Assembly (NCBI RefSeq): GCF_048403405.1 | Contig: NZ_CP183131.1 | Direction: 5' to 3' (one strand) | DNA from: Escherichia coli | GTDB taxonomy: Bacteria > Pseudomonadota > Gammaproteobacteria > Enterobacterales > Enterobacteriaceae | DNA length: 64,000 nt | Shown: one piece after another, positions 86 through 63,724 of the stretch | Layout: each line of letters starts with the position of its first letter | Numbering within the stretch: position 1 is the stretch's first letter | Position numbers and translations under genes: made by a program | Notes under the pieces: model-generated | What the model saw: the letters and a program-made list of their open reading frames with translations, nothing else | The model's database searches: none | What the model was told of the DNA's origin: nothing

Positions 86-1845
<1,760 letters not shown>

Positions 1846-1886
1846 AAAAGTGGGCGCTTAGCGCCCGCTTTTCTTCAGGAGTAATC

Positions 1887-2882
1887 ATGACTGATGCAGC
1901 TTTCTATCAACTTGGCCCACTGCGCGAGTATTTAGAAGATCCTACTGTTTTTGAAATTCGCATTAACTGCTTTCAGGAAGTTATCTGTGATACGTTCAGC
2001 GGCCGCAGGGTTGTGCAGAACGCGGCAATTACGGCAGATTTTATTAGGAACCTTGCTAAATCGTTGGTGAGCAGCAACAAGCTGACCATGCAGGCCATTA
2101 ATGACGTGATCCTGCCTGGCGGGATCAGGGGCGTTATCTGTCTGCCCCCTGCGGTGATTGACGGTACAACGGCCGTAGCGTTTCGTAAGGATTTGGCGGC
2201 CGATAAAAATCTGGAGCAGCTGACCAGCGAGGGGATTTTCAGTGACTGCCGGAAGATTACCGGCAGCAAGCAAAGCCTAACGGATGATGATTTTTTCCTT
2301 AAAGAGCTGCACAGCAGCGAAAAATGGCCCGCATTCCTGCAAACCGCCGTTGAGAAGAAACGCACTATCGTGATCTGCGGTGAAACCGGGTCGGGGAAAA
2401 CGGTACTCACGCGCGCGCTGTTAAAATCGCTACATAAAGACGAGCGTGTAATTATTTTAGAGGACGTTCACGAAGTCACGGTCGATCACGTTGTAGAAGC
2501 CGTTTATATGATGTACGGCGATGCAGGAAAGATCGGCCGCGTCAGCGCCACTGATGCCCTGCGAGCCTGTATGCGTCTGACACCGGGCCGTATCATCATG
2601 ACTGAGCTTAGGGATGATGCTGCGTGGGATTATCTTAAAGCACTTAATACCGGCCATCCAGGCGGTGTTATGTCAACGCACGCTAACTCTGCGCGCGATG
2701 CCTTTAACCGTATTGGGCTGCTTATCAAAGCGACCCCTATCGGCCGTATGCTCGATATGAGCGATATTATGCGAATGCTCTACTCCACCATTGACGTTGT
2801 GGTGCATATGGAAAAGCGGAAAATCAAAGAAATTTATTTTGACCCTGAATATAAAATGCAGTGTGTGAACGGGAGCCTGTAA
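1887..2882 (+). CDS. traG: T4SS VirB11-like ATPase (IncN/pKM101-type TraG)
   Basis: 331 aa; Walker A GETGSGKT and conserved VirB11 C-terminal region; sits at the end of the VirB8-11 order. Confidence 0.85.
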   Translation: MTDAAFYQLGPLREYLEDPTVFEIRINCFQEVICDTFSGRRVVQNAAITADFIRNLAKSLVSSNKLTMQAINDVILPGGIRGVICLPPAVIDGTTAVAFRKDLAADKNLEQLTSEGIFSDCRKITGSKQSLTDDDFFLKELHSSEKWPAFLQTAVEKKRTIVICGETGSGKTVLTRALLKSLHKDERVIILEDVHEVTVDHVVEAVYMMYGDAGKIGRVSATDALRACMRLTPGRIIMTELRDDAAWDYLKALNTGHPGGVMSTHANSARDAFNRIGLLIKATPIGRMLDMSDIMRMLYSTIDVVVHMEKRKIKEIYFDPEYKMQCVNGSL

Positions 2883-3415
2883 TGAAAAACTTAGCAACCT
2901 GGCTTCTGGCCGCAGCATTTACGACAGCCGCCCTGCCCGCCTTTGCGGTGGAACCATCCGTTCAGGTTGGCTACTCGCCTGAAGGAAGCGCCCGCGTTCT
3001 CGTCCTGAGCGCCATTGACTCCGCAAAAACCTCGATACGGATGATGGCTTATTCTTTTACCGCCCCGGATATTATGAAGGCACTGGTAGCAGCCAAAAAA
3101 CGGGGAGTTGATGTGAAAATCGTAATTGATGAAAGGGGCAATACGGGGCGCGCCAGCATTGCGGCCATGAACTACATAGCGAACAGCGGCATCCCTTTGC
3201 GTACTGACAGTGATTTCCCTATCCAGCATGACAAGGTGATCATCGTGGATAATGTGACCGTTGAAACTGGCAGCTTTAATTTCACCAAAGCGGCCGAAAC
3301 GAAAAACTCGGAGAATGCGGTGGTGATCTGGAACATGCCTAAGCTCGCTGAATCATTCCTCGAACACTGGCAAGACCGCTGGAATCGGGGGAGAGACTAC
3401 CGTTCCAGCTACTGA
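2882..3415 (+). CDS. nuc: Nuc, periplasmic phospholipase-D-family endonuclease (pKM101 Nuc-like)
   Basis: Signal peptide MKNLATWLLAAAFTTAALPAFA; HxK-type motif region (IQHDKVIIVD); matches pKM101 Nuc from memory; start taken at internal ATG 2882 rather than ORF-track 2861. Confidence 0.85.
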   Translation: MKNLATWLLAAAFTTAALPAFAVEPSVQVGYSPEGSARVLVLSAIDSAKTSIRMMAYSFTAPDIMKALVAAKKRGVDVKIVIDERGNTGRASIAAMNYIANSGIPLRTDSDFPIQHDKVIIVDNVTVETGSFNFTKAAETKNSENAVVIWNMPKLAESFLEHWQDRWNRGRDYRSSY

Positions 3416-3421
3416 ATACTG

Positions 3422-3445
3422 ACCGCCGAAAGGCGGTTTTTTTTG
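3422..3445 (+). terminator. Rho-independent terminator after nuc
   Basis: GC stem ccgccgaaaggcgg followed by a T8 run, immediately after the nuc stop. Confidence 0.6.
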
Positions 3446-3588
3446 TTCAAAGAAACTGATCTCAGTATCGCGCACGGGGCAGCTGGCCAACGTCGCCGGC
3501 ATCGCGCCGGCAAAAATCGAAAAACAGAAATATCAGCAAGATAGCTTAAACAGGTGTCGGGAAATTTCGTTGAGATATTTTGAAGGAA

Positions 3589-3894
3589 TCACAGTGTAAG
3601 CAGGCGGCCTATTTCAAAAAAGGCGGCTGTACGGTAGTCACTGACTCTCTCGCAGATCTTCCCGCTCATGTACCAGTAATACCCGTCAGTGCTGACAATA
3701 TCGAGCAAATACCGCATATCATAAACCGTATCGGGTATTACCTCACCCTCACCGGCCAGAACGCCGCTGGCAATAGAATGGTTCCCTCCTCGTACAAAGC
3801 CTATCCGCCAGGGCAACCACAAAGTAACGCGGTGGTTAATATCCTGTACCCACGGATTGCCCTTAGCGCTGCCTATATGGGGTCTGAGGTCCAA
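3589..3894 (-). CDS. Hypothetical protein (coding strand uncertain; an overlapping plus-strand ORF exists at 3580-3915)
   Basis: ORF only; no family recognised. Confidence 0.2.
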   Translation of the reverse strand: MDLRPHIGSAKGNPWVQDINHRVTLWLPWRIGFVRGGNHSIASGVLAGEGEVIPDTVYDMRYLLDIVSTDGYYWYMSGKICERVSDYRTAAFFEIGRLLTL

Positions 3895-4142
3895 CCATGC
3901 GAAAAACCACGTTAAGAAAGCAACCTTCTGAAAAGGCGACGTTTATCAGTTTTTTTTCCGGCCATAAAGGGGGCGGAAATTATTCCCTGCACGGGTATTC
4001 GCAAGGATTTCGGTAGTGCTCTGGCTCTGCCCCCCATAACCTGGCGGACAGAGCATGATTGGGAAAGCGGTACCCTCACGGCAGAAACGATTGACGCAGG
4101 CTATATTTCTATTATTCTGGAAATATAGATAAAGGAGGTATT

Positions 4143-4323
4143 ATGGATTTAAACACTGCTGCAAACGCACTTCGAGAACTGGGCCACCCGACACGTCTCA
4201 GCATATACCGGGAGCTGGTCAGGGCGGGTCATGAAGGCCTGCCGGTTGGCGAACTGCAGAAGCACCTTGAGATTCCTGCCTCCACGCTCAGCCATCATCT
4301 TTCAGCGCTGATATCCGCTGGAC
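4143..4323 (+). pseudogene. ArsR-family HTH regulator, 3'-truncated by IS26
   Basis: N-terminal winged-helix motif (HPTRLSIYRELV…LPVGEL…STLSHHLSAL); ORF runs into the IS26 left IR at 4324. Confidence 0.7.
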
Positions 4324-5143
4324 GGCACTGTTGCAAATAGTCGGTGGTGATAAACTTATCATCCCCTTTTGCTGATGGAGCTGCACATGAACCCATTCAA
4401 AGGCCGGCATTTTCAGCGTGACATCATTCTGTGGGCCGTACGCTGGTACTGCAAATACGGCATCAGTTACCGTGAGCTGCAGGAGATGCTGGCTGAACGC
4501 GGAGTGAATGTCGATCACTCCACGATTTACCGCTGGGTTCAGCGTTATGCGCCTGAAATGGAAAAACGGCTGCGCTGGTACTGGCGTAACCCTTCCGATC
4601 TTTGCCCGTGGCACATGGATGAAACCTACGTGAAGGTCAATGGCCGCTGGGCGTATCTGTACCGGGCCGTCGACAGCCGGGGCCGCACTGTCGATTTTTA
4701 TCTCTCCTCCCGTCGTAACAGCAAAGCTGCATACCGGTTTCTGGGTAAAATCCTCAACAACGTGAAGAAGTGGCAGATCCCGCGATTCATCAACACGGAT
4801 AAAGCGCCCGCCTATGGTCGCGCGCTTGCTCTGCTCAAACGCGAAGGCCGGTGCCCGTCTGACGTTGAACACCGACAGATTAAGTACCGGAACAACGTGA
4901 TTGAATGCGATCATGGCAAACTGAAACGGATAATCGGCGCCACGCTGGGATTTAAATCCATGAAGACGGCTTACGCCACCATCAAAGGTATTGAGGTGAT
5001 GCGTGCACTACGCAAAGGCCAGGCCTCAGCATTTTATTATGGTGATCCCCTGGGCGAAATGCGCCTGGTAAGCAGAGTTTTTGAAATGTAAGGCCTTTGA
5101 ATAAGACAAAAGGCTGCCTCATCGCTAACTTTGCAACAGTGCC
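4324..5143 (+). mobile_element. IS26: IS26, complete 820 bp (tnp26 4387-5091)
   Basis: 14-bp terminal IRs ggcactgttgcaaa / tttgcaacagtgcc; 234-aa Tnp26 ([18 protein letters not shown]…); different 8-bp flanks, so no TSD. Confidence 0.97.
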
Positions 5144-5377
5144 GTCAAACGCCTCATTGAGCACCGGCAGTAATCCCTCACCTTCATGGGTCAGCACCAG
5201 CCCGCGCGAGACGCGGGTAAACAGCACACAGCCGAGTTGTTCTTCCAGCGCCCTGACCTGCTGGCTGACGGCGGCATGGGTGACATTCAGCTCAATCGCC
5301 GCGCGGGTAAAACTGAGATGACGGGCGGCGGCCTCAAAGGCGCGCAGCGGGTTAAGGGGGAGATAACGTCTGACCAT
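5144..5377 (-). pseudogene. ampR: ampR (LysR-type regulator) 5' remnant, truncated by IS26
   Basis: LysR HTH N-terminus (MVRRYLPLNPLRAFEAAARHLSFTRAA…) fused into IS26 sequence after about 78 codons; downstream of qnrA1 as in ISCR1-qnrA1 modules. Confidence 0.8.
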
Positions 5378-6270: not shown

Positions 6271-8424
6271 ACCTTTTTGCTCCTCATCCGAAGTATCTTA
6301 CCTGAAATTCCCTCACTCGTTTACCGCTCAAGCCCCAATTTTAACTGCCGGTCCAGCCTAAACCGCTCTAATAAGGTTCGATTTGGCGGTAAAATCTCTA
6401 GCCTGATAGCTCGAGAGATACAAACTGCCCCACCGCCCCGTTTAAAAGTTGGCAGTGTTGAGCAGTGTTGGATTTGGGGTCGTCAGTCAAAGAGACGACT
6501 CTGTGATGGATCGAACAGGCTGGGAGTCAGTGGCGGCGCTCGTTCTGGTGGCAGCTCACGCTGCTTGGCGGCATTCGCCTTGGCTGTTTTCTGTTTCAGA
6601 TGCTTGAGAATCTGCTCAATGACCTTCGGATCTTCGATGCTGGCAATCACTTTGACGTGACCGCCGCAGTGTTCGCAGACTTCAATATCAATATTGAAGA
6701 CTCGCTTGAGGCGTTGCATCCAGGTCATGGCGCGGTGGCGCTCTGCAGGACTCTTGTCACGCCAGTTAGTATCGAGACCTTCCGATTTGTCGGGCTTCTT
6801 GCCCCGCTTGGCGGGTGTTACTTGAACTCGGTGTTTGCTGTTCGGTGCAAAGACGCCGTGGAAGCGTGTGAGGTTGACTCGCGGCTTAGGTACCAACGCA
6901 GCGAGTTTGGCGATGAAGTCCAGCGGCTCGAAGATCACATGGGTGGTGCCATTGCGGTACGGAGTTTTGAGCTCGTAACGCACCTGCCCATTGGCGGTTA
7001 ATGCCAGACGTTTTTCTGAAACCGCTGGCCGACTAATGTAGCGACACAAGCGCTCAAGCTTATCCCGCTGATGCGCTTCGGCCATCACACCGGCGTGTAG
7101 CGAGAAACCAGCATGGTTGGCTACTCGACTGCTTGAGTCGGCTTTATCCTCACGCCCTGGCAAGGTTTGCAGGGTGAAGACTTTGCGCCCTTGCTGGGGG
7201 CCGACGGCAATGCGATACGTAACCGAAGCACCATGTAATTGAGTCAGCGTATCGTCTTCGCCCTCTTCCAGTGTCAACCACGTATTCTCGGCATCACGCT
7301 CCAAAATCCCACGCTTTTCCATGCAGCGAGCGATGCGATGGCTGAGGGTGTGAGCGAGCGTATTCAGCTCATCGTAAGTGGGTGCCTTGACACGATGGAA
7401 GCGTTGCTTGCCATAGTCATCTTCGGCATAGACACCATCGAGAAACAGCATGTGGTAGTGGACATTGAGATTTAGCGCGGAGCCAAAGCGTTGGATAAGA
7501 GTCACTGAGCCAGTTTGTGCAGAGGCTTTGGTGTAACCGGCTTTTTTGATCAGATGAGTTGAGAGTGTACGATAGACGATACTCAAGACCTGGCCCATCA
7601 GCTGGGGATGGCGAGCCAGCAAAAAGCGTAGCTGGAAAGGAAAGCTGAGCACCCACTGGCGAATGGGCTCCTTGGGGAAGACTTCGTCTATCAGCAGCGC
7701 CGCACTCTCGGCCATCCGGCGGGCACCGCAGCTAGGGCAAAAGCCGCGTCGTTTACAGCTGAAGGCGACCAGACGCTCGTGATGACAATCCTCGCAGCGA
7801 ACCCGCATGAAACCATACTCCAGACGGCCACATTGGAGGAGGTCGTTGAATTCTTGTTGGATGTAGCGAGGCAGGTGTTGACCTTGGGCTTCGAGTGAGG
7901 CTTTGAAGGCTGGGTAGTGCTGCTCAACCAGCTGGTAGAGCAGCGTCTGGTCGGGTTGGTGGCGTTCGTAACCGTTTGTTTGAGTGGGCGATTGACTCGC
8001 CGTGGCGTTCCTTGCCAGCGACATGGGTATCCTCCGCTGATACTGTGGTTATGTACAGTATCAGCGGCTTGCGTTCAGACGTCCAGTCTGGCCCTAGACA
8101 TCGCTAAATGCTTAACCCGCAATAGCCCTCACGAGTTGTTATCAGCCACTACCGGTTGAGCGAGAAGGTTTTGGGTTCAGGGTGCTATTGCTCCACCAAT
8201 CACAATACTGAAGCCCCAACTGTTATCAGTTGGGGCTTTTTCTTGTCTGTTTGCGGCGGTTGCGTTTTATCGGTAGTCGTCGAGCTCTGCACCATCCCAC
8301 ATAAGAGCTTAACGGTGCGATCTTCAACGCCATCACACAAAACTTTCTTTTTCACGCACAGTCAACTTATTGGATGTTTTATTAACAACCCAAAAGGAGA
8401 TATTTAGCGGGCGGCCGGAAGGTG
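6271..8424 (-). mobile_element. ISCR1: ISCR1 (boundaries approximate)
   Basis: Contains orf513; located directly after sul1 and before qnrA1 as in complex class 1 integrons; ends not verified at nucleotide level. Confidence 0.65.
6483..8024 (-). CDS. orf513: ISCR1 rolling-circle transposase (Orf513)
   Basis: 513 aa, MSLARNATASQSPTQTNGYERHQPDQTLLYQLVEQHY…; IS91-like HUH transposase features. Confidence 0.9.
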   Translation of the reverse strand: MSLARNATASQSPTQTNGYERHQPDQTLLYQLVEQHYPAFKASLEAQGQHLPRYIQQEFNDLLQCGRLEYGFMRVRCEDCHHERLVAFSCKRRGFCPSCGARRMAESAALLIDEVFPKEPIRQWVLSFPFQLRFLLARHPQLMGQVLSIVYRTLSTHLIKKAGYTKASAQTGSVTLIQRFGSALNLNVHYHMLFLDGVYAEDDYGKQRFHRVKAPTYDELNTLAHTLSHRIARCMEKRGILERDAENTWLTLEEGEDDTLTQLHGASVTYRIAVGPQQGRKVFTLQTLPGREDKADSSSRVANHAGFSLHAGVMAEAHQRDKLERLCRYISRPAVSEKRLALTANGQVRYELKTPYRNGTTHVIFEPLDFIAKLAALVPKPRVNLTRFHGVFAPNSKHRVQVTPAKRGKKPDKSEGLDTNWRDKSPAERHRAMTWMQRLKRVFNIDIEVCEHCGGHVKVIASIEDPKVIEQILKHLKQKTAKANAAKQRELPPERAPPLTPSLFDPSQSRLFD

Positions 8425-11540: not shown

Positions 11541-11613
11541 ACCCACGGCGTAACGCGCTTGCTGCTTGGATGCCCGAGGCATAGACTGTACAAAAAAACA
11601 GTCATAACAAGCC

Positions 11614-12829: not shown

Positions 12830-12849
12830 ATGGAGGTGGTAGCCGAGGG

Positions 12850-13669
12850 GGCACTGTTGCAAAGTTAGCGATGAGGCAGCCTTTTGTCTTATTCAAAGGC
12901 CTTACATTTCAAAAACTCTGCTTACCAGGCGCATTTCGCCCAGGGGATCACCATAATAAAATGCTGAGGCCTGGCCTTTGCGTAGTGCACGCATCACCTC
13001 AATACCTTTGATGGTGGCGTAAGCCGTCTTCATGGATTTAAATCCCAGCGTGGCGCCGATTATCCGTTTCAGTTTGCCATGATCGCATTCAATCACGTTG
13101 TTCCGGTACTTAATCTGTCGGTGTTCAACGTCAGACGGGCACCGGCCTTCGCGTTTGAGCAGAGCAAGCGCGCGACCATAGGCGGGCGCTTTATCCGTGT
13201 TGATGAATCGCGGGATCTGCCACTTCTTCACGTTGTTGAGGATTTTACCCAGAAACCGGTATGCAGCTTTGCTGTTACGACGGGAGGAGAGATAAAAATC
13301 GACAGTGCGGCCCCGGCTGTCGACGGCCCGGTACAGATACGCCCAGCGGCCATTGACCTTCACGTAGGTTTCATCCATGTGCCACGGGCAAAGATCGGAA
13401 GGGTTACGCCAGTACCAGCGCAGCCGTTTTTCCATTTCAGGCGCATAACGCTGAACCCAGCGGTAAATCGTGGAGTGATCGACATTCACTCCGCGTTCAG
13501 CCAGCATCTCCTGCAGCTCACGGTAACTGATGCCGTATTTGCAGTACCAGCGTACGGCCCACAGAATGATGTCACGCTGAAAATGCCGGCCTTTGAATGG
13601 GTTCATGTGCAGCTCCATCAGCAAAAGGGGATGATAAGTTTATCACCACCGACTATTTGCAACAGTGCC
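12850..13669 (-). mobile_element. IS26: IS26, complete 820 bp (tnp26 12902-13606, minus strand)
   Basis: Terminal IRs at 12850-12863 and 13656-13669; identical Tnp26 ORF; inverted relative to the copy at the window start. Confidence 0.97.
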
Positions 13670-13962
13670 GTATCACTCATGGCCTGTTTCGGCTTCACAA
13701 AAAAATGGTTCATTTTGTGCGCAAACGTCCAGCTTTCAGAATCGCCAAAAGCATGAGTGATATAGGTTTCGTCAGGCGCGACAACAATGTGGGTAGCCAC
13801 ACCGGCGATAGCGTCAATTTTGACCACATTAACAGGGTTATAAACAACGCTTTTAATGCGATAGTCATAAGGATAATTGCGGCCAACCTCAAGCGCCATA
13901 ACGTTAGTGGCCGCGCCTCCCAGGACTGACAAAACGACTGCTGAAAGAAGTAGTTTTTTCAT
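13670..13962 (-). pseudogene. traO: traO (VirB9-like), 5' portion including signal peptide; interrupted by IS26
   Basis: MKKLLLSAVVLSVLGGAATNVMA signal peptide then VirB9 N-domain; ORF reads into the IS26 IR; 8-bp gtatcact at the junction. Confidence 0.8.
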
Positions 13963-14732: not shown

Positions 14733-15313
14733 TCCAAGATAATCTTGCGCTTATCTTTCTGAATTTCGATAGGCTGCTCCGGTTCACTCAGAACACCCTC
14801 TGACGCTTTCAGATCTTGAATACTTGGAAAGCCCTTCCCTGCTCCTGCTTTTCTTGGTCTCTGCTCTGTTACCTCAATCGCTATTTCATCCCCCTCCCGG
14901 AACTGCGGGTAACAACCAGCGCGGTTGGCATAGCGATTCAACGACATTTTGAGCAGCCGGTATTTCTTTGGGCAGGTTATTTGTACTGACGCATCAGAGC
15001 TGCAAGCTGCGTCAAGCCGCCGGAAAAATTCCTCCGGTATCCCCTTTACAAGGAGATCGCTCAACTCATCCATAGGCCTTGAGCCGGTTGGCATCGGATA
15101 TGGCAACCTCCGGTATTCTCTGTAGATGTACCGCTTGATGACGATATGAAAGACGAATGCGGCAAAGCCCCACAAAGGGCCATTAAGGAGCCCCGCAACG
15201 ATAAGTAGCACCGACGGGAAGGGAACCCCTACGAAACTCGGCAGGACTTTAATCTTTACCATCGGCGTTGACCGACGCACACTCTCACTCATTTGCTGAC
15301 CCTTTACGTGCAA
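14729..15313 (-). CDS. Membrane-anchored hypothetical protein with C-terminal …PIEIQKDKRKIILD tail
   Basis: One TM segment; the C-terminal 14 aa nearly match the tail of the 16069-17253 product. Confidence 0.5.
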   Translation of the reverse strand: MHVKGQQMSESVRRSTPMVKIKVLPSFVGVPFPSVLLIVAGLLNGPLWGFAAFVFHIVIKRYIYREYRRLPYPMPTGSRPMDELSDLLVKGIPEEFFRRLDAACSSDASVQITCPKKYRLLKMSLNRYANRAGCYPQFREGDEIAIEVTEQRPRKAGAGKGFPSIQDLKASEGVLSEPEQPIEIQKDKRKIILD

Positions 15314-24217: not shown

Positions 24218-24766
24218 TTACATCTGCTCGCTTGGATCAAACCCCAAAGCCTTGCACACGTCATCCAGGTCATCGAGCGTGAAGAATCCCAGCGTCAGTT
24301 CCCCGGAGCGCTTCGCGGGGTTATAGCGAACTTTGATAGGCCTACCCGTAGCATCGCTCATCAGGGTCTCCAGGCGCTTAATGTCTGCATCCCTGTCCAC
24401 TTCTTTGCCCTTCGCTATCGCCTCAAATTTATGAACCGGTGTCCTGGTATGCAGGAGATCCCTCAGGAGCTTTTCTCTCTTGCTGAAAGGTAACTTAGCC
24501 ACGGCCCTCACATGCCCCAGGGTGATCTTGCGTGGATTTCTGAGCCAGAGTGTTAGCTCTTCCTCCGATAGCGTACCGGCGCGTTTCAGGTGTGTAACCG
24601 TATAGACCTTCTCAATACCCAGATCCTCTCTGATCTGACTGTTTGAACGCCCCTCTCCGCTTAGGAACGCGACCACATAGGCCTTTTCTGCATCAGTCAT
24701 GCCTGGATGCTGGTGGTAGTAGTCAATGGCTTCTCTTGCATCGAGCAGTAGGGGTAGGTTGTTCAT
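24218..24766 (-). CDS. Putative HTH DNA-binding protein, weakly ParB/KorB-like
   Basis: 182 aa; segment …ITLGHVRAVAKLP… resembles the ParB GHARAL region; low certainty. Confidence 0.4.
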   Translation of the reverse strand: MNNLPLLLDAREAIDYYHQHPGMTDAEKAYVVAFLSGEGRSNSQIREDLGIEKVYTVTHLKRAGTLSEEELTLWLRNPRKITLGHVRAVAKLPFSKREKLLRDLLHTRTPVHKFEAIAKGKEVDRDADIKRLETLMSDATGRPIKVRYNPAKRSGELTLGFFTLDDLDDVCKALGFDPSEQM

Positions 24767-24928
24767 TCAGGACACCTTTTAGTCACATGACTATATCGAG
24801 GCTTATTCTACCCCCTATTTTAGTCACATGACTACTTACTGACATTTCGGCCCCCATCGCCGCCGATTTTTCTTGATTATAGGTTTGAATCTATATAGGA
24901 TTGCACCTATATTAAGTAAGGAGAAATC

Positions 24929-25279
24929 ATGTGGGTCATCGAGACAACCGACACCTTTGATGAGTGGTTCGATGCTCTGGATGATACCGATAGAGCAAAC
25001 GTGCTGGCTTCGATGATGGTGCTGCGAGATAGAGGCCCCATGCTGTCGAGGCCATACGCGGATACTGTTAACGGTTCATCCTACAGCAACATGAAAGAGC
25101 TTCGGGTCCAAAGCAAAGGAGATCCTATCAGAGCGTTCTTTGCGTTCGATCCAAAGCGTAAGGGGATTCTTCTCTGCGCCGGTAACAAGACCGGGGACGA
25201 GAAAAGGTTTTATGAAGTAATGATCCCAATTGCAGACCGTGAGTTTGCGGCGCACTTGGATAAATTGAAGAAGGAGTGA
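24929..25279 (+). CDS. higB: Type II toxin, RelE/HigB-like
   Basis: 116 aa; followed 4 bp later by an XRE-HTH antitoxin gene (toxin-first order typical of HigBA). Confidence 0.65.
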   Translation: MWVIETTDTFDEWFDALDDTDRANVLASMMVLRDRGPMLSRPYADTVNGSSYSNMKELRVQSKGDPIRAFFAFDPKRKGILLCAGNKTGDEKRFYEVMIPIADREFAAHLDKLKKE

Positions 25280-25283
25280 CGTT

Positions 25284-25586
25284 ATGGCAAGAACTCTTGA
25301 CCAAATGCTGGCAACAGAAAAGCCTGAGGTTGTTGCCAAAGCACAGAAAGCGGCCACTGAGATGTTACTGAACATCCACTTGGCAGAGCTTCGTGATCGC
25401 ATGAACCTTACCCAGGGGGAAATTGCTGCATCTCTGGGTGTGAGACAGCCGACAGTCTCCGAGATGGAAAAACCTGGACGAGATCTCAAGCTGTCGTCCA
25501 TTAAGCGGTACGTTGAGGCCTCCGGTGGCAAGCTACGCCTCGATGTTGAACTTCCGGACGGCACCCACTACGGCTTTGCCGTTTAA
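25284..25586 (+). CDS. higA: Type II antitoxin, XRE-family HTH (HigA-like)
   Basis: 100 aa; HTH LTQGEIAASLGVRQPTVSEMEK. Confidence 0.65.
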   Translation: MARTLDQMLATEKPEVVAKAQKAATEMLLNIHLAELRDRMNLTQGEIAASLGVRQPTVSEMEKPGRDLKLSSIKRYVEASGGKLRLDVELPDGTHYGFAV

Positions 25587-25612
25587 CTCGATACGCCCCG
25601 TTATGGGGCGTA

Positions 25613-25906
25613 TTACTTCTCTTGCTCTTCTTCCAGCCGTTTTCGGTATATCTCTCCTGCACGTTCCCTGCCATCGTCGGTCAGCCTAAAGGCCAGCTTT
25701 AGAGAAGCATTCCGGTACTTGTTCAACAGGCCGTTCTCCACCAGCGTGTGGCATGACGTTCGGAAGTTCGTTCCATGAATACCGCTCTGGCGAGCTGAAT
25801 TGATCATCTCCAGTATTTTTACACCTGGTACAGGCTCGGCTTTTCCACCGGCCTCAATTGCGTATAGAATGAACAAAACGTCTTTTTGAGTTGACGACAA
25901 TCTCAT
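25613..25906 (-). CDS. Hypothetical protein
   Basis: 97-aa ORF. Confidence 0.35.
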   Translation of the reverse strand: MRLSSTQKDVLFILYAIEAGGKAEPVPGVKILEMINSARQSGIHGTNFRTSCHTLVENGLLNKYRNASLKLAFRLTDDGRERAGEIYRKRLEEEQEK

Positions 25907-56159: not shown

Positions 56160-56979
56160 GGCACTGTTGCAAATAGTCGGTGGTGATAAACTTATCATCC
56201 CCTTTTGCTGATGGAGCTGCACATGAACCCATTCAAAGGCCGGCATTTTCAGCGTGACATCATTCTGTGGGCCGTACGCTGGTACTGCAAATACGGCATC
56301 AGTTACCGTGAGCTGCAGGAGATGCTTGCTGAACGCGGAGTGAATGTCGATCACTCCACGATTTACCGCTGGGTTCAGCGTTATGCGCCTGAAATGGAAA
56401 AACGGCTGCGCTGGTACTGGCGTAACCCTTCCGATCTTTGCCCGTGGCACATGGATGAAACCTACGTGAAGGTCAATGGCCGCTGGGCGTATCTGTACCG
56501 GGCCGTCGACAGCCGGGGCCGCACTGTCGATTTTTATCTCTCCTCCCGTCGTAACAGCAAAGCTGCATACCGGTTTCTGGGTAAAATCCTCAACAACGTG
56601 AAGAAGTGGCAGATCCCGCGATTCATCAACACGGATAAAGCGCCCGCCTATGGTCGCGCGCTTGCTCTGCTCAAACGCGAAGGCCGGTGCCCGTCTGACG
56701 TTGAACACCGACAGATTAAGTACCGGAACAACGTGATTGAATGCGATCATAGCAAACTGAAACGGATAATCGGCGCCACGCTGGGATTTAAATCCATGAA
56801 GACGGCTTACGCCACCATCAAAGGTATTGAGGTGATGCGTGCACTACGCAAAGGCCAGGCCTCAGCATTTTATTATGGTGATCCCCTGGGCGAAATGCGC
56901 CTGGTAAGCAGAGTTTTTGAAATGTAAGGCCTTTGAATAAGACAAAAGGCTGCCTCATCGCTAACTTTGCAACAGTGCC
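56160..56979 (+). mobile_element. IS26: IS26 variant copy, 820 bp (tnp26 56223-56927)
   Basis: Terminal IRs intact; carries Tnp26 Gly177Ser (…ECDHSKLK…) and a synonymous ctg>ctt change shared with the copy at 59588-60407. Confidence 0.96.
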
Positions 56980-59440: not shown

Positions 59441-59587
59441 ATGGTAAAAGATTGGATTCCCATCTCTCATGATAATTACAAGCAGGTGCAAGGACCGTTC
59501 TATCATGGAACCAAAGCCAATTTGGCGATTGGTGACTTGCTAACCACAGGGTTCATCTCTCATTTCGAGGACGGTCGTATTCTTAAG
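59441..59587 (+). pseudogene. arr-3: arr-3 (rifampin ADP-ribosyltransferase), 3'-truncated by IS26 after about 49 codons
   Basis: MVKDWIPISHDNYKQVQGPFYHGTKANLAIGDLLTTGFISHFEDGRIL then IS26 IR. Confidence 0.85.
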
Positions 59588-60407
59588 GGCACTGTTGCAA
59601 AGTTAGCGATGAGGCAGCCTTTTGTCTTATTCAAAGGCCTTACATTTCAAAAACTCTGCTTACCAGGCGCATTTCGCCCAGGGGATCACCATAATAAAAT
59701 GCTGAGGCCTGGCCTTTGCGTAGTGCACGCATCACCTCAATACCTTTGATGGTGGCGTAAGCCGTCTTCATGGATTTAAATCCCAGCGTGGCGCCGATTA
59801 TCCGTTTCAGTTTGCCATGATCGCATTCAATCACGTTGTTCCGGTACTTAATCTGTCGGTGTTCAACGTCAGACGGGCACCGGCCTTCGCGTTTGAGCAG
59901 AGCAAGCGCGCGACCATAGGCGGGCGCTTTATCCGTGTTGATGAATCGCGGGATCTGCCACTTCTTCACGTTGTTGAGGATTTTACCCAGAAACCGGTAT
60001 GCAGCTTTGCTGTTACGACGGGAGGAGAGATAAAAATCGACAGTGCGGCCCCGGCTGTCGACGGCCCGGTACAGATACGCCCAGCGGCCATTGACCTTCA
60101 CGTAGGTTTCATCCATGTGCCACGGGCAAAGATCGGAAGGGTTACGCCAGTACCAGCGCAGCCGTTTTTCCATTTCAGGCGCATAACGCTGAACCCAGCG
60201 GTAAATCGTGGAGTGATCGACATTCACTCCGCGTTCAGCAAGCATCTCCTGCAGCTCACGGTAACTGATGCCGTATTTGCAGTACCAGCGTACGGCCCAC
60301 AGAATGATGTCACGCTGAAAATGCCGGCCTTTGAATGGGTTCATGTGCAGCTCCATCAGCAAAAGGGGATGATAAGTTTATCACCACCGACTATTTGCAA
60401 CAGTGCC
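59588..60407 (-). mobile_element. IS26: IS26, 820 bp (tnp26 59640-60344, minus strand)
   Basis: Terminal IRs intact; shares the synonymous SNP with the copy at 56160. Confidence 0.97.
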
Positions 60408-60729
60408 GTAATTATTTAGGATATAGCTCTGTGATTTAGTCTTTTTAGGGCGTTTATTTATGTCTTTATGCTGTAATGTCGGTGCTGATTTGGTCTTCAA
60501 TAAGGCGATTTTTAGCCCGCTTTTTCCGGGGGGATGAAATGTTATTGGATTGCTAAATGATTTCAAAAAAGGGGTAACATAGAGCGGGGATTAGTGTGGC
60601 GAGGCGCAGGTTTCCGATGGCAGGCTAAACGCAAAAAATGCGCTTTTTAGCCGGTGATGAGGTGAGGCCGGGAGGGGATGCGTCGCCGATCACAGTTTAC
60701 AACAGGGTTTGATAACGGGAGGAAAAGTC

Positions 60730-62904: not shown

Positions 62905-63724
62905 GGCACTGTTGCAAAGTTAGCGATGAGGCAGCCTTTTGTCTTATTCAAAGGCCTTACATTTCAAAAACTCTGCTTACCAGGCGCATTTCGCCCAGGG
63001 GATCACCATAATAAAATGCTGAGGCCTGGCCTTTGCGTAGTGCACGCATCACCTCAATACCTTTGATGGTGGCGTAAGCCGTCTTCATGGATTTAAATCC
63101 CAGCGTGGCGCCGATTATCCGTTTCAGTTTGCCATGATCGCATTCAATCACGTTGTTCCGGTACTTAATCTGTCGGTGTTCAACGTCAGACGGGCACCGG
63201 CCTTCGCGTTTGAGCAGAGCAAGCGCGCGACCATAGGCGGGCGCTTTATCCGTGTTGATGAATCGCGGGATCTGCCACTTCTTCACGTTGTTGAGGATTT
63301 TACCCAGAAACCGGTATGCAGCTTTGCTGTTACGACGGGAGGAGAGATAAAAATCGACAGTGCGGCCCCGGCTGTCGACGGCCCGGTACAGATACGCCCA
63401 GCGGCCATTGACCTTCACGTAGGTTTCATCCATGTGCCACGGGCAAAGATCGGAAGGGTTACGCCAGTACCAGCGCAGCCGTTTTTCCATTTCAGGCGCA
63501 TAACGCTGAACCCAGCGGTAAATCGTGGAGTGATCGACATTCACTCCGCGTTCAGCCAGCATCTCCTGCAGCTCACGGTAACTGATGCCGTATTTGCAGT
63601 ACCAGCGTACGGCCCACAGAATGATGTCACGCTGAAAATGCCGGCCTTTGAATGGGTTCATGTGCAGCTCCATCAGCAAAAGGGGATGATAAGTTTATCA
63701 CCACCGACTATTTGCAACAGTGCC
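62905..63724 (-). mobile_element. IS26: IS26, 820 bp (tnp26 62957-63661, minus strand)
   Basis: Terminal IRs intact; standard Tnp26 sequence. Confidence 0.97.

Follow-up and report, generated by a model that had tools for sequence, protein, structure and literature searches.

Two small genes lie side by side on the + strand of the window, by which we mean the whole 64-kb stretch of DNA that was analyzed. The first, higB (tad), is an ATG-initiated ORF encoding a toxin of 116 aa (24929..25279); the second, higA (ata), is an ATG-initiated ORF encoding an antitoxin of 100 aa, an XRE/Cro-type HTH protein (25284..25586). The stop codon of higB, TGA, occupies 25277-25279, and four nucleotides (CGTT) separate it from the ATG of higA. 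A preliminary description of this DNA had given the same gene boundaries and the same 4-bp gap, and both match the ORF list and the sequence exactly. Each gene is preceded by a Shine-Dalgarno (SD) sequence, AAGGAG; that of higB (24918..24923, +) lies 5 nt 5' of the ATG at 24929, while that of higA (25271..25276, +) sits within the last codons of higB, 7 nt 5' of the higA ATG. A purine-rich SD is found at the equivalent place in most homologous loci. Directly 3' of higA, between convergent genes, a terminator-like scan and RNA folding identified a GC-rich stable hairpin (25590..25614, +; dG -17.7 kcal/mol, z = -5.0 versus shuffles). Its U-tract is weak (ACTTCTCTTG), and it is probably a terminator or a stabilizer of the transcript end. 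The pair has a promoter-like site at its 5' side only and a hairpin at its 3' side only, and when the + strand inside higB (24929-25279) was scanned for an internal higA promoter, no site reached the scan threshold. In Acinetobacter baumannii, an internal higA promoter predicted within the toxin gene is non-functional (PMC5906591). The locus thus has the layout of a type II toxin-antitoxin (TA) operon, with two small, adjacent and co-oriented protein genes.

This pair matches a module characterized as "higBA (tad-ata)" by Qi, Kamruzzaman & Iredell (mSphere 2021, PMC8265657), which, according to its authors, is the sole TA module that they identified in the backbone of IncC plasmids; a second paper also includes this HigBA-like TA in the conserved IncC backbone (PMC10954446). 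The gene sizes, 351 and 303 bp, are those of the published system, and we detected no difference between the pair in the window and IncC HigBA/Tad-Ata (WP_000270043.1 / WP_000124640.1); the RefSeq protein accessions at the locus are those of IncC plasmids generally. Both cloning primers for variant 1 (v1) in the supplement of PMC8265657 match exactly, at 24835-24853 and 25626-25640, and thereby delimit the stabilizing higBA_TAS_v1 fragment that was cloned into pACYC184 (24835..25640, +), within which the hairpin also falls; the v2 forward primer was searched for in the window and is absent. All eight codons that were compared with Table S2 of that paper are those of variant 1, and the nine synonymous positions at which the pair departs from the pNDM-US allele fit its description of v1 and v2. 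The promoter and "SOS box" string quoted in PMC8265657 is present verbatim, and residue G64 is present in HigB. We infer identity with the tested pEc158 (KY887596.1) construct from the allele-table codons, the cloning primers and the strings quoted in the paper.

The surrounding DNA is that of an IncC conjugative resistance plasmid, as the preliminary description had anticipated when it placed the pair in the backbone of a resistance plasmid. Across 759 plasmid records, almost all of conjugative plasmids, a 1-kb segment is shared at 99% identity or more, and the records examined were typed IncC; the window also carries intI1, sul1, an ISCR1 transposase gene and several copies of IS26, and it matches plasmid resistance regions. 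IncC plasmids are major vehicles for resistance genes, those for carbapenemases among them, higBA aids their persistence without antibiotic pressure, and the module has been proposed as a plasmid-curing target. We put the probability that the locus is the IncC-plasmid higBA (tad-ata) type II TA addiction module, variant 1 allele, at roughly 93%. The locus is real, was correctly read from the start and has already been published; its value here lies in an annotation confirmed as correct, with nothing new hidden at the locus. What this analysis adds, as described below, is a model of the operator and promoter and a broader distribution for the cassette; the rest was already known.

HigB scores 81.2 bits with Pfam PF05973 (Gp49; cut-off 23.9, E 5.8e-23) in a match that spans positions 1-89 of the 90-position profile, and Gp49 is its sole Pfam match, with no other Pfam model matching even at E<=10. 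All listed HigB homologues carry PF05973 as well, and HigB matches a PHROG "toxin" family at 3e-24. Against NCBIfam TIGR02683 (upstrm_HI1419 RelE/ParE), HigB scores 21.4 bits, below the cut-off of 62.85; judged by this score, it is distantly related to TIGR02683 and not a member of that equivalog. The AF2 model of HigB (pLDDT 96.9) has the element order b-a-a-b-b-b-b-a and, by AF2 and Foldseek, the RelE-type alpha/beta fold, in which N-terminal helices pack on an antiparallel beta sheet; G64 sits in a turn joining two beta strands. The best Foldseek matches are the HigB/RelE toxins 6af4, 5jaa, 2khe, 1wmi, 9g12 and 4fxe, with probability 1.0 to HigB and RelE structures. Sequence searches of the PDB with HigB (phmmer) and with an 85-sequence family profile returned no solved HigB, no Gp49-clade toxin and no meaningful match, so that solved toxins are linked to it by fold only. 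With a Gp49 domain above the gathering score, the toxin gene in first position and an XRE-HTH antitoxin downstream, HigB is a RelE-fold toxin of the Gp49/Tad clade in the RelE/ParE superfamily. Residues R59, R68, R77, K87 and Y95 of HigB are nearly invariant and are candidates for a catalytic role. Because Pfam places the toxin in Gp49/Tad and not in the classical Rts1/E. coli HigB family, "HigBA-like" denotes architecture and not strict family membership.

For HigA, two Pfam domains exceed their cut-offs, HTH_37 (29.3 bits, cut-off 27) and HTH_3 (28 bits, cut-off 23). Residues 15-94 align with HigA2 of Mycobacterium tuberculosis (Mtb; 7ewc, E 2.7e-6) and residues 18-94 with Mtb HigA3 (6lty, E 4.5e-5), giving near-full-length similarity to solved HigA proteins that includes the C-terminal strands. 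The highly conserved parts of HigA are the recognition helix around R54-Q55-P56-T57 and a C-terminal segment, GGKLRLDVELPDGTHYGF. The AF2 model of HigA was poor (pLDDT 70, pTM 0.35, from a shallow 31-sequence alignment) and was left out of the fold evidence. The Pfam, fold and HigA-alignment tests agree with the earlier reading of the pair as a RelE/HigB-like toxin and an XRE-HTH antitoxin. A chance pair of ORFs is ruled out by the family scores and by conservation: the higBA pair is kept as a unit, with its layout of 116 aa plus 100 aa, in eight diverged loci with unrelated neighbors.

The closest studied relative of the pair is HigBA2 of A. baumannii plasmid pAB120 (Armalyte et al. 2018, PMC5906591), which is about 51% identical in both proteins (PMC8265657), likewise has a Gp49-domain toxin first and an XRE-HTH antitoxin second, and likewise stabilizes plasmids (PMC5906591), although it differs from the IncC pair in host range and plasmid type. 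The toxin-first order holds in all Gp49 modules studied (PMC5906591). Tad-Ata of Paracoccus aminophilus pAMI2 and its homologous pairs in SXT and phage N15 (gp49), described by Dziewit et al. (2007) as cited in later papers, are founding members of the Gp49 (PF05973) clade and share a toxin gene in first position, an HTH antitoxin and a role in plasmid or prophage stabilization; that branch is about 20% identical to the A. baumannii/IncC branch (PMC5906591). The Gp49-clade toxins of Mtb HigBA2 (Rv2022c-Rv2021c) and HigBA3 (Rv3182-Rv3183) are also encoded in the reverse gene order found in IncC, and the alignments of HigA2 and HigA3 span almost the whole of the IncC antitoxin, but these two systems differ from the IncC pair in being chromosomal and of low sequence identity to it. 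The study of PMC11205783 did not demonstrate that Mtb HigB2 is toxic. Structurally, the best match to the HigB model is HigBA of Streptococcus pneumoniae (6af3/6af4; TM 0.70-0.73), while HigB2 of Vibrio cholerae (5jaa) reaches TM 0.53; both are RelE-fold toxins with HTH HigA partners, as in IncC, yet they share 13-18% sequence identity with IncC HigB and are invisible to sequence and profile searches. Classical HigBA (Rts1, E. coli K-12) resembles the IncC pair in being a toxin-first operon with an HTH antitoxin and a RelE-superfamily toxin, and a preference for A-rich mRNA is reported to be common to both toxins (PMC8265657), whereas the classical HigB belongs to a different Pfam family; Gp49-domain toxins in general show little similarity to the HigBs of Rts1 and E. 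coli (PMC5906591).

The function of this allele has been tested directly. Arabinose-induced expression of variant 1 higB arrests the growth of E. coli J53 and co-expression of higA rescues it (PMC8265657), so the toxicity and neutralization assays suggested earlier for this locus are already in print. Toxicity is abolished by the G64V substitution, and induction of HigB depletes translated A-rich mRNAs (PMC8265657). When the operon was carried with its native promoter, retention of pACYC184 was 99.3-100% over 70 generations, versus about 88% without it (PMC8265657); the vector in this assay was heterologous, and loss in the control was just about 12%. This gain in retention bears out the suggestion that the pair is an addiction module that stabilizes its plasmid.

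Together, these data are consistent with the following mechanism. Transcription from a sigma-70 promoter immediately 5' of higB very probably yields a single mRNA for higB and higA, with translation of each cistron directed by its own AAGGAG, and the XRE-type HTH protein HigA binds and neutralizes HigB. Upon plasmid loss HigA would no longer be replenished, and its decay is presumed to be faster than that of HigB. Freed HigB, acting as a RelE-fold endoribonuclease and possibly at the ribosomal A site, would then cleave translated A-rich mRNAs and arrest growth. Plasmid-free segregants would be out-competed, and the resistance plasmid would persist without antibiotic selection.

We considered whether HigB could poison gyrase in the manner of ParE instead of cleaving RNA, which would explain filamentation on induction. 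HigB is named "RelE/ParE family toxin" by NCBI, and its induction elongates cells (PMC8265657). However, lexA and recA are not induced, nucleoid staining is unlike that of ciprofloxacin-treated cells, and the levels of lpp, ompA and ssrA mRNA fall on induction of HigB, a drop that is abolished by G64V (PMC8265657). In Foldseek, the HigB model matches ParE structures weakly (probability 0.28-0.51), as opposed to the probability of 1.0 obtained with HigB/RelE structures. The 51%-identical A. baumannii homologue, HigB2, is an RNase that degrades naked total RNA in vitro (PMC5906591). We regard a gyrase poison as very improbable, a reading largely refuted by the loss of mRNA, the fold match and the RNase activity of the homologue. 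On RNA cleavage itself the two toxins are described differently: the activity of pAB120 HigB2 was demonstrated on naked RNA, while IncC HigB is claimed to depend on ribosomes, from qPCR of two ssrA amplicons (PMC8265657).

The cassette is not confined to IncC plasmids. It is widespread in chromosomes, in the gammaproteobacterial genera Marinospirillum, Xenorhabdus, Photorhabdus and Legionella and in Thalassospira, where the proteins are 81-94% identical to those of IncC and the neighboring genes are unrelated. Because these near-identical cassettes sit in chromosomes, plasmid addiction cannot be their function there. This raises the question of whether the module acts, primarily or in addition to post-segregational killing, in abortive infection or another form of defense against phages or competing plasmids. 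According to such a model, infection would stop host transcription, labile HigA would decay and HigB would halt translation before the phage cycle is complete. The toxin family is named for gp49 of phage N15, and HigB matches a PHROG toxin family in the category "moron/host takeover". HigB also matches the C-terminal part of NsnC, a PADLOC defense-candidate model, but the match is weak (E 4e-8) and covers only one domain of a larger protein. Selfish mobility would account equally well for the chromosomal spread among unrelated neighbors, and plasmid stabilization, in contrast, has been demonstrated directly (PMC8265657). We consider a defense role unlikely for the module, and post-segregational killing on the plasmid is the reading we retain.

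Comparison of the diverged loci also bears on how the operon is controlled. Immediately upstream of higB, a repeat search identified a double palindrome, ATAG-N8-CTAT|ATAG-N8-CTAT (24879..24910, +), consisting of two abutting 16-bp palindromes, O1 (24879-24894) and O2 (24895-24910), of which O2 extends to a perfect palindrome, ATATAGG-N6-CCTATAT (24893-24912). Even with 2 mismatches allowed, the window holds no second copy of the double palindrome, where shuffles lead to an expectation of 0, and the motif is exact in five of the eight diverged loci, one of which has a toxin of 59% identity. Upstream of homologues with 59-94% protein identity the palindrome half-sites are kept while spacers and flanks vary, and the recognition helix of HigA is conserved alongside them. 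ATATAGG-N6-CCTATAT has the same half-site geometry as ATATCAC-N6-GTGATAT, the motif determined by experiment for Mtb HigA2 (PMC11205783). The Mtb HigA2 site is located within higB2, and HigA2 regulates other targets as well (PMC11205783); the palindrome bound by Mtb HigA3 is at the -10 box. HigA2 of pAB120, the closest studied homologue, represses the operon that encodes it, and HigB serves there as co-repressor (PMC5906591).

Two candidate promoters overlap in this region, and O1 and O2 together span both. The published sigma-70 promoter (24885..24913, +), whose hexamers are quoted as a predicted promoter in PMC8265657, has a -35 TTGAAT (24885-24890), a 17-nt spacer and a -10 TATATT (24908-24913), and scores 9/12 in a consensus scan. 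Its expected start, at ~24920, would land in the SD of higB, and two homologues do not conserve its -35. Alignments of homologous loci revealed a conserved -35-like hexamer, TTGATT (24873..24878, +), whose TTGA is invariant or nearly so across ten of ten aligned loci. With a 17-nt spacer and TAGGAT (24896-24901), it may constitute an alternative promoter; homologues have TTGACC, TTGACT or TTGAAC followed by TAGTAT or TAGAAT at the same spacing. The conserved promoter is nevertheless the weaker consensus match in the IncC allele (8/12 versus 9/12). We suggest that a HigA dimer bound to the two palindromes at 24879-24910, overlapping the promoter, would repress transcription of higBA, HigB acting as co-repressor. 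Going by sequence and conservation, the double palindrome is a candidate HigA operator, and it appears to be a better candidate for the control element than the degenerate "SOS box" that has been published.

That putative non-canonical SOS (LexA) box, GATTGCACCTATATTAAGTA (24899..24918, +), is an exact match to the string in PMC8265657 and overlaps O2. If it were functional, the higBA operon would be a member of the SOS regulon, repressed by LexA through 24899-24918, and its main role would be in the response to DNA-damage stress. The presence of the string verbatim in the window and the response to ciprofloxacin are consistent with this view: at sub-MIC ciprofloxacin, higB rises 2.2 log2-fold on pACYC184 and 1.05 log2-fold on the IncC backbone, and the same exposure also raises higA but not copy number (PMC8265657). 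However, stress-induced turnover of the antitoxin, relieving autorepression, would explain this induction equally well, and the authors themselves state that LexA binding is unconfirmed (PMC8265657). Compared with the LexA consensus TACTG(TA)5CAGTA, the box matches at 13 of 20 positions and its key trimers are degenerate (TTG/AAG versus CTG/CAG); counting both strands and the box itself, 18 sites in the window match at 13 or more of the 20. Homologues, among them the gammaproteobacterial loci of Xenorhabdus and Legionella, do not conserve these trimers, whereas they do conserve the overlapping palindrome half-sites. The box at 24899-24918 therefore neither stands above background nor is conserved, and we think it improbable that higBA is an SOS operon.

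At about even confidence, we propose a joint reading in which the regulation of this module has been partly misread. The control element would be the conserved double HigA operator (24879-24910), placed between the hexamers of the TTGATT/TAGGAT promoter and across its -10, and the "SOS box" would simply be the operator's right half; ciprofloxacin would induce the operon because stress lifts repression by HigA, without involvement of LexA. The cassette would be a highly conserved, mobile two-gene unit with a range beyond IncC, with a chromosomal role that is perhaps phage defense. The operator/promoter model and the wider distribution would refine the view of the fluoroquinolone response and would leave the overall picture of the module unchanged. 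A further observation that speaks against LexA control of higBA comes from the same window, where genuine CTG-N10-CAG boxes are found elsewhere, 5' of intI1 and of the ISCR1 transposase gene.

The toxin and antitoxin genes occupy 24929-25279 (higB, 116 aa, ATG start) and 25284-25586 (higA, 100 aa, ATG start) on the + strand, with the 4-nt spacer CGTT between the TGA of higB and the ATG of higA, which matches exactly the coordinates and 4-bp gap of the preliminary description. [quoted passage not shown] The window carries the variant 1 codon at all eight of the Table S2 positions compared (PMC8265657), and both published variant 1 cloning primers match exactly (24835-24853 and 25626-25640; PMC8265657). 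Relative to the pNDM-US allele there are nine third-position synonymous differences in the 351 bp of higB and zero in the 303 bp of higA, reproducing the published description of variants 1 and 2 (PMC8265657). This uneven split could mark the boundary of a recombination patch or differing constraints on the two genes. Three further differences from pNDM-US (24850, 24858, and 24927) lie upstream, all outside the candidate operator discussed below.

In the published work, induction of higB arrests growth and higA rescues it, the pair raises retention of pACYC184 over 70 generations from about 88% to 99-100%, and sub-MIC ciprofloxacin gives a two- to four-fold induction (PMC8265657). The preliminary description had called the pair a HigBA-like addiction module that would stabilize the plasmid; this is borne out by the family and fold matches and by the published stabilization for the same allele, and the toxicity and neutralization assays it proposed had already been reported with the predicted outcome (PMC8265657). 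Earlier work has thus described the module and validated it experimentally with exactly this allele, and what our analysis adds is modest: a candidate operator formed by a conserved double palindrome, a promoter and SOS box that are possibly misassigned, and a spread of the cassette beyond IncC.

HigB matched Pfam PF05973 (Gp49) at 81.2 bits (cut-off 23.9) over practically the entire profile and no other Pfam model even at E<=10; an NCBIfam search returned a RelE/ParE model below threshold and nothing more, and the matching PHROGs family is annotated "toxin" (3e-24). A full-library search, with representatives clustered at 50% identity, gave 2911 relatives at E<=1e-3. By these defining sequence models the toxin is placed in the Gp49/Tad clade (PF05973) and not in the classical Rts1/E. 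coli HigB family, and what it shares with HigBA systems is the toxin-first order, a RelE-fold toxin, and an XRE-HTH antitoxin. HigB had no hit in the PDB by sequence or by profile, and therefore no solved structure of the Gp49 toxin clade was detected. An AlphaFold2 model from an 85-sequence alignment was very confident (pLDDT 96.9, pTM 0.89), with strands at residues 3-6, 44-46, 56-62, 65-73, and 78-86 and helices at 8-15, 19-38, and 91-115. Its significant Foldseek matches in the PDB were HigB and RelE toxins only: S. pneumoniae HigB (6af3/6af4, TM 0.65-0.73), V. cholerae HigB2 (5jaa), and RelE of T. thermophilus, P. horikoshii, M. tuberculosis, and E. coli; ParE structures scored far below these. 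These structural matches, together with the published depletion of mRNA and the elongation of HigB-expressing cells without induction of lexA or recA, that is, without an SOS response (PMC8265657), contradict the alternative that HigB is a ParE-like gyrase poison.

The alignment contained 15 near-invariant residues (L32, G36, L39, P42, E57, L58, R59, R68, F73, D74, R77, L82, K87, Y95, and A102), among which the basic and aromatic R59, R68, R77, K87, and Y95 are, by analogy with RelE, candidates for a catalytic role. The escape mutation G64V abolishes toxicity (PMC8265657). Because glycine 64 sits in the modeled two-residue turn joining strands 56-62 and 65-73, we infer that this substitution breaks a tight beta-hairpin rather than removing a catalytic group.

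HigA scored above the Pfam cut-offs for HTH_37 and HTH_3, and its residues 15-94 and 18-94 align with solved M. tuberculosis HigA2 (7ewc, E 2.7e-6) and HigA3 (6lty, E 4.5e-5), respectively, antitoxins that partner Gp49-type toxins; its own AlphaFold2 model was poor (pLDDT 70) and was set aside. The evidence best supports classical post-segregational growth arrest, with the pair working as a type II toxin-antitoxin system: HigB acts as a RelE-fold mRNA endoribonuclease, and HigA inhibits HigB and may also repress the operon. Ribosome dependence of cleavage is the soft part of this scheme; its basis is qPCR of two ssrA amplicons (PMC8265657), and A. baumannii HigB2, 51% identical, degrades naked RNA in vitro (PMC5906591).

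Canonical AAGGAG Shine-Dalgarno sequences precede both + strand genes, at 24918-24923, 5 nt 5' of the higB ATG, and at 25271-25276, within the final higB codons and 7 nt 5' of the higA ATG; the operon ends in a stable + strand hairpin (25590-25614, dG -17.7 kcal/mol, z -5). We compared the locus with eight diverged loci (toxin identity 59-94%) from Marinospirillum, Xenorhabdus, Legionella, and several metagenomes, all eight of which hold the same toxin-antitoxin pair among unrelated neighbors. In most of them the higA Shine-Dalgarno lies inside the last higB codons, and in every one a spacer of just 1-6 nt separates the two genes, which points to conservation of translational coupling or of the way the toxin-to-antitoxin ratio is set.

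A repeat search found two tandem 16-bp units 5' of higB, each an imperfect palindrome. In the upstream alignment TTGA (24873-24876) is invariant and conservation is absent 5' of it; 3' of it lies ATAG-N8-CTAT|ATAG-N8-CTAT (24879-24910), whose half-sites are conserved and whose spacers vary. Five of the eight diverged loci carry this double palindrome without a mismatch, and in the 64-kb window it occurs once even when two mismatches are allowed, where shuffles expect none. Its second unit extends to a perfect ATATAGG-N6-CCTATAT (24893-24912), equal in arm length and spacing to the experimentally defined M. tuberculosis HigA2 motif ATATCAC-N6-GTGATAT (PMC11205783). The palindrome bound by M. 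tuberculosis HigA3 lies at its -10 box; in A. baumannii, HigA2 is a repressor of its own operon, and HigB acts as co-repressor (PMC5906591). Given these parallels, the uniqueness and conservation of the double palindrome, and the co-conservation of the HigA recognition helix ([RK]QPT[VI]) across the homologous loci, we propose 24879-24910 as a candidate HigA operator.

The evidence for the putative SOS box published for this region, GATTGCACCTATATTAAGTA (a single occurrence, 24899-24918), is much weaker. Only 13 of its 20 positions agree with the LexA consensus, and both critical trimers are degenerate; on the two strands together 18 sites in the window, itself included, score at least as well, and the trimers are not conserved among homologs, all of which makes LexA control of higBA unlikely. 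The published promoter hexamers (PMC8265657) are present on the + strand (-35 TTGAAT, 24885-24890; -10 TATATT, 24908-24913), and this -10 would put the transcript start at about 24920, within the Shine-Dalgarno. The conserved TTGA suggests an alternative + strand promoter, TTGATT (24873-24878), 17 nt, and TAGGAT (24896-24901; TAGTAT or TAGAAT in homologs), whose transcript would keep the higB Shine-Dalgarno, although in the IncC allele it is the weaker match to consensus (8/12 versus 9/12).

Among 1000 matching plasmid records, 759 shared at least 99% identity with the 1-kb segment around higBA and a further 231 shared 95-99%. Hosts included Klebsiella, Salmonella, Escherichia, Citrobacter, Providencia, Vibrio, and others; 926 of the 1000 were predicted conjugative, and those inspected were typed IncC, MOBH/MPF_F. 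At the nucleotide level higBA is described as almost exclusive to IncC (PMC8265657). At the protein level, long contigs from Marinospirillum, Xenorhabdus, Photorhabdus, Thalassospira, Legionella, and others, some of megabases, encode 116-aa toxins with 81-94% identity together with cognate 100-aa antitoxins. The neighborhoods of these non-IncC cassettes are mutually unrelated, and with the spread across genera this means that the cassette behaves as a self-contained mobile unit of which the IncC copy would be one lineage. Chromosomal copies of the cassette and a weak PADLOC domain match of the toxin would fit a role in phage defense, which we consider improbable.

The 34 kb of the window around higBA is collinear with the IncC backbone, and at the left end intI1 and sul1 belong to a resistance region of the class 1 integron/ISCR1 type; the first description of the pair as lying in a resistance-plasmid backbone is therefore correct. 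The divergent gene beside higBA (24218-24766, - strand, 182 aa), annotated only "transcriptional regulator," encodes a C-terminal ParB dimerization domain (PF23552, E 7e-8). Upstream of it TTTTAGTCACATGACTA occurs twice, exactly (24777-24793 and 24818-24834), each copy holding the palindrome TAGTCA-CA-TGACTA and overlapping - strand promoter-like sites; the two are probably an autoregulatory operator pair of this gene. Convergent with higA is a 97-aa ORF (25613-25906, - strand), named "chromosome segregation protein ParM" in RefSeq; this name looks unsupported because the ORF has no Pfam or NCBIfam match and an actin-like ParM would be far longer.

Within the resistance region there are two canonical CTG-N10-CAG LexA-type boxes: TACTGTGGTTATGTACAGTA (8041-8060, 16/20 to consensus) precedes the start of the ISCR1 transposase gene (6483-8024, - strand) by 17 nt, and GACTGTACAAAAAAACAGTC (11584-11603, 14/20) precedes the ATG of intI1 (11614) by 30 nt. 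SOS control of intI1 is established. Relative to a reference IncC plasmid, window 13670-48000 is collinear with reference 14900-49230 and window 86-5152 corresponds to 14907-9839, inverted, with the integron/ISCR1 region between the two pieces. An IS26-associated segment lies at 12849-13671 and further IS26 copies at 56160-56979, 59586-60409, and 62905-63724. The two junctions overlap by 8 bp (reference 14900-14907), which looks like an IS26 target duplication, and this overlap together with the inverted piece suggests an intramolecular IS26 inversion that split a TrbG/VirB9-like gene.
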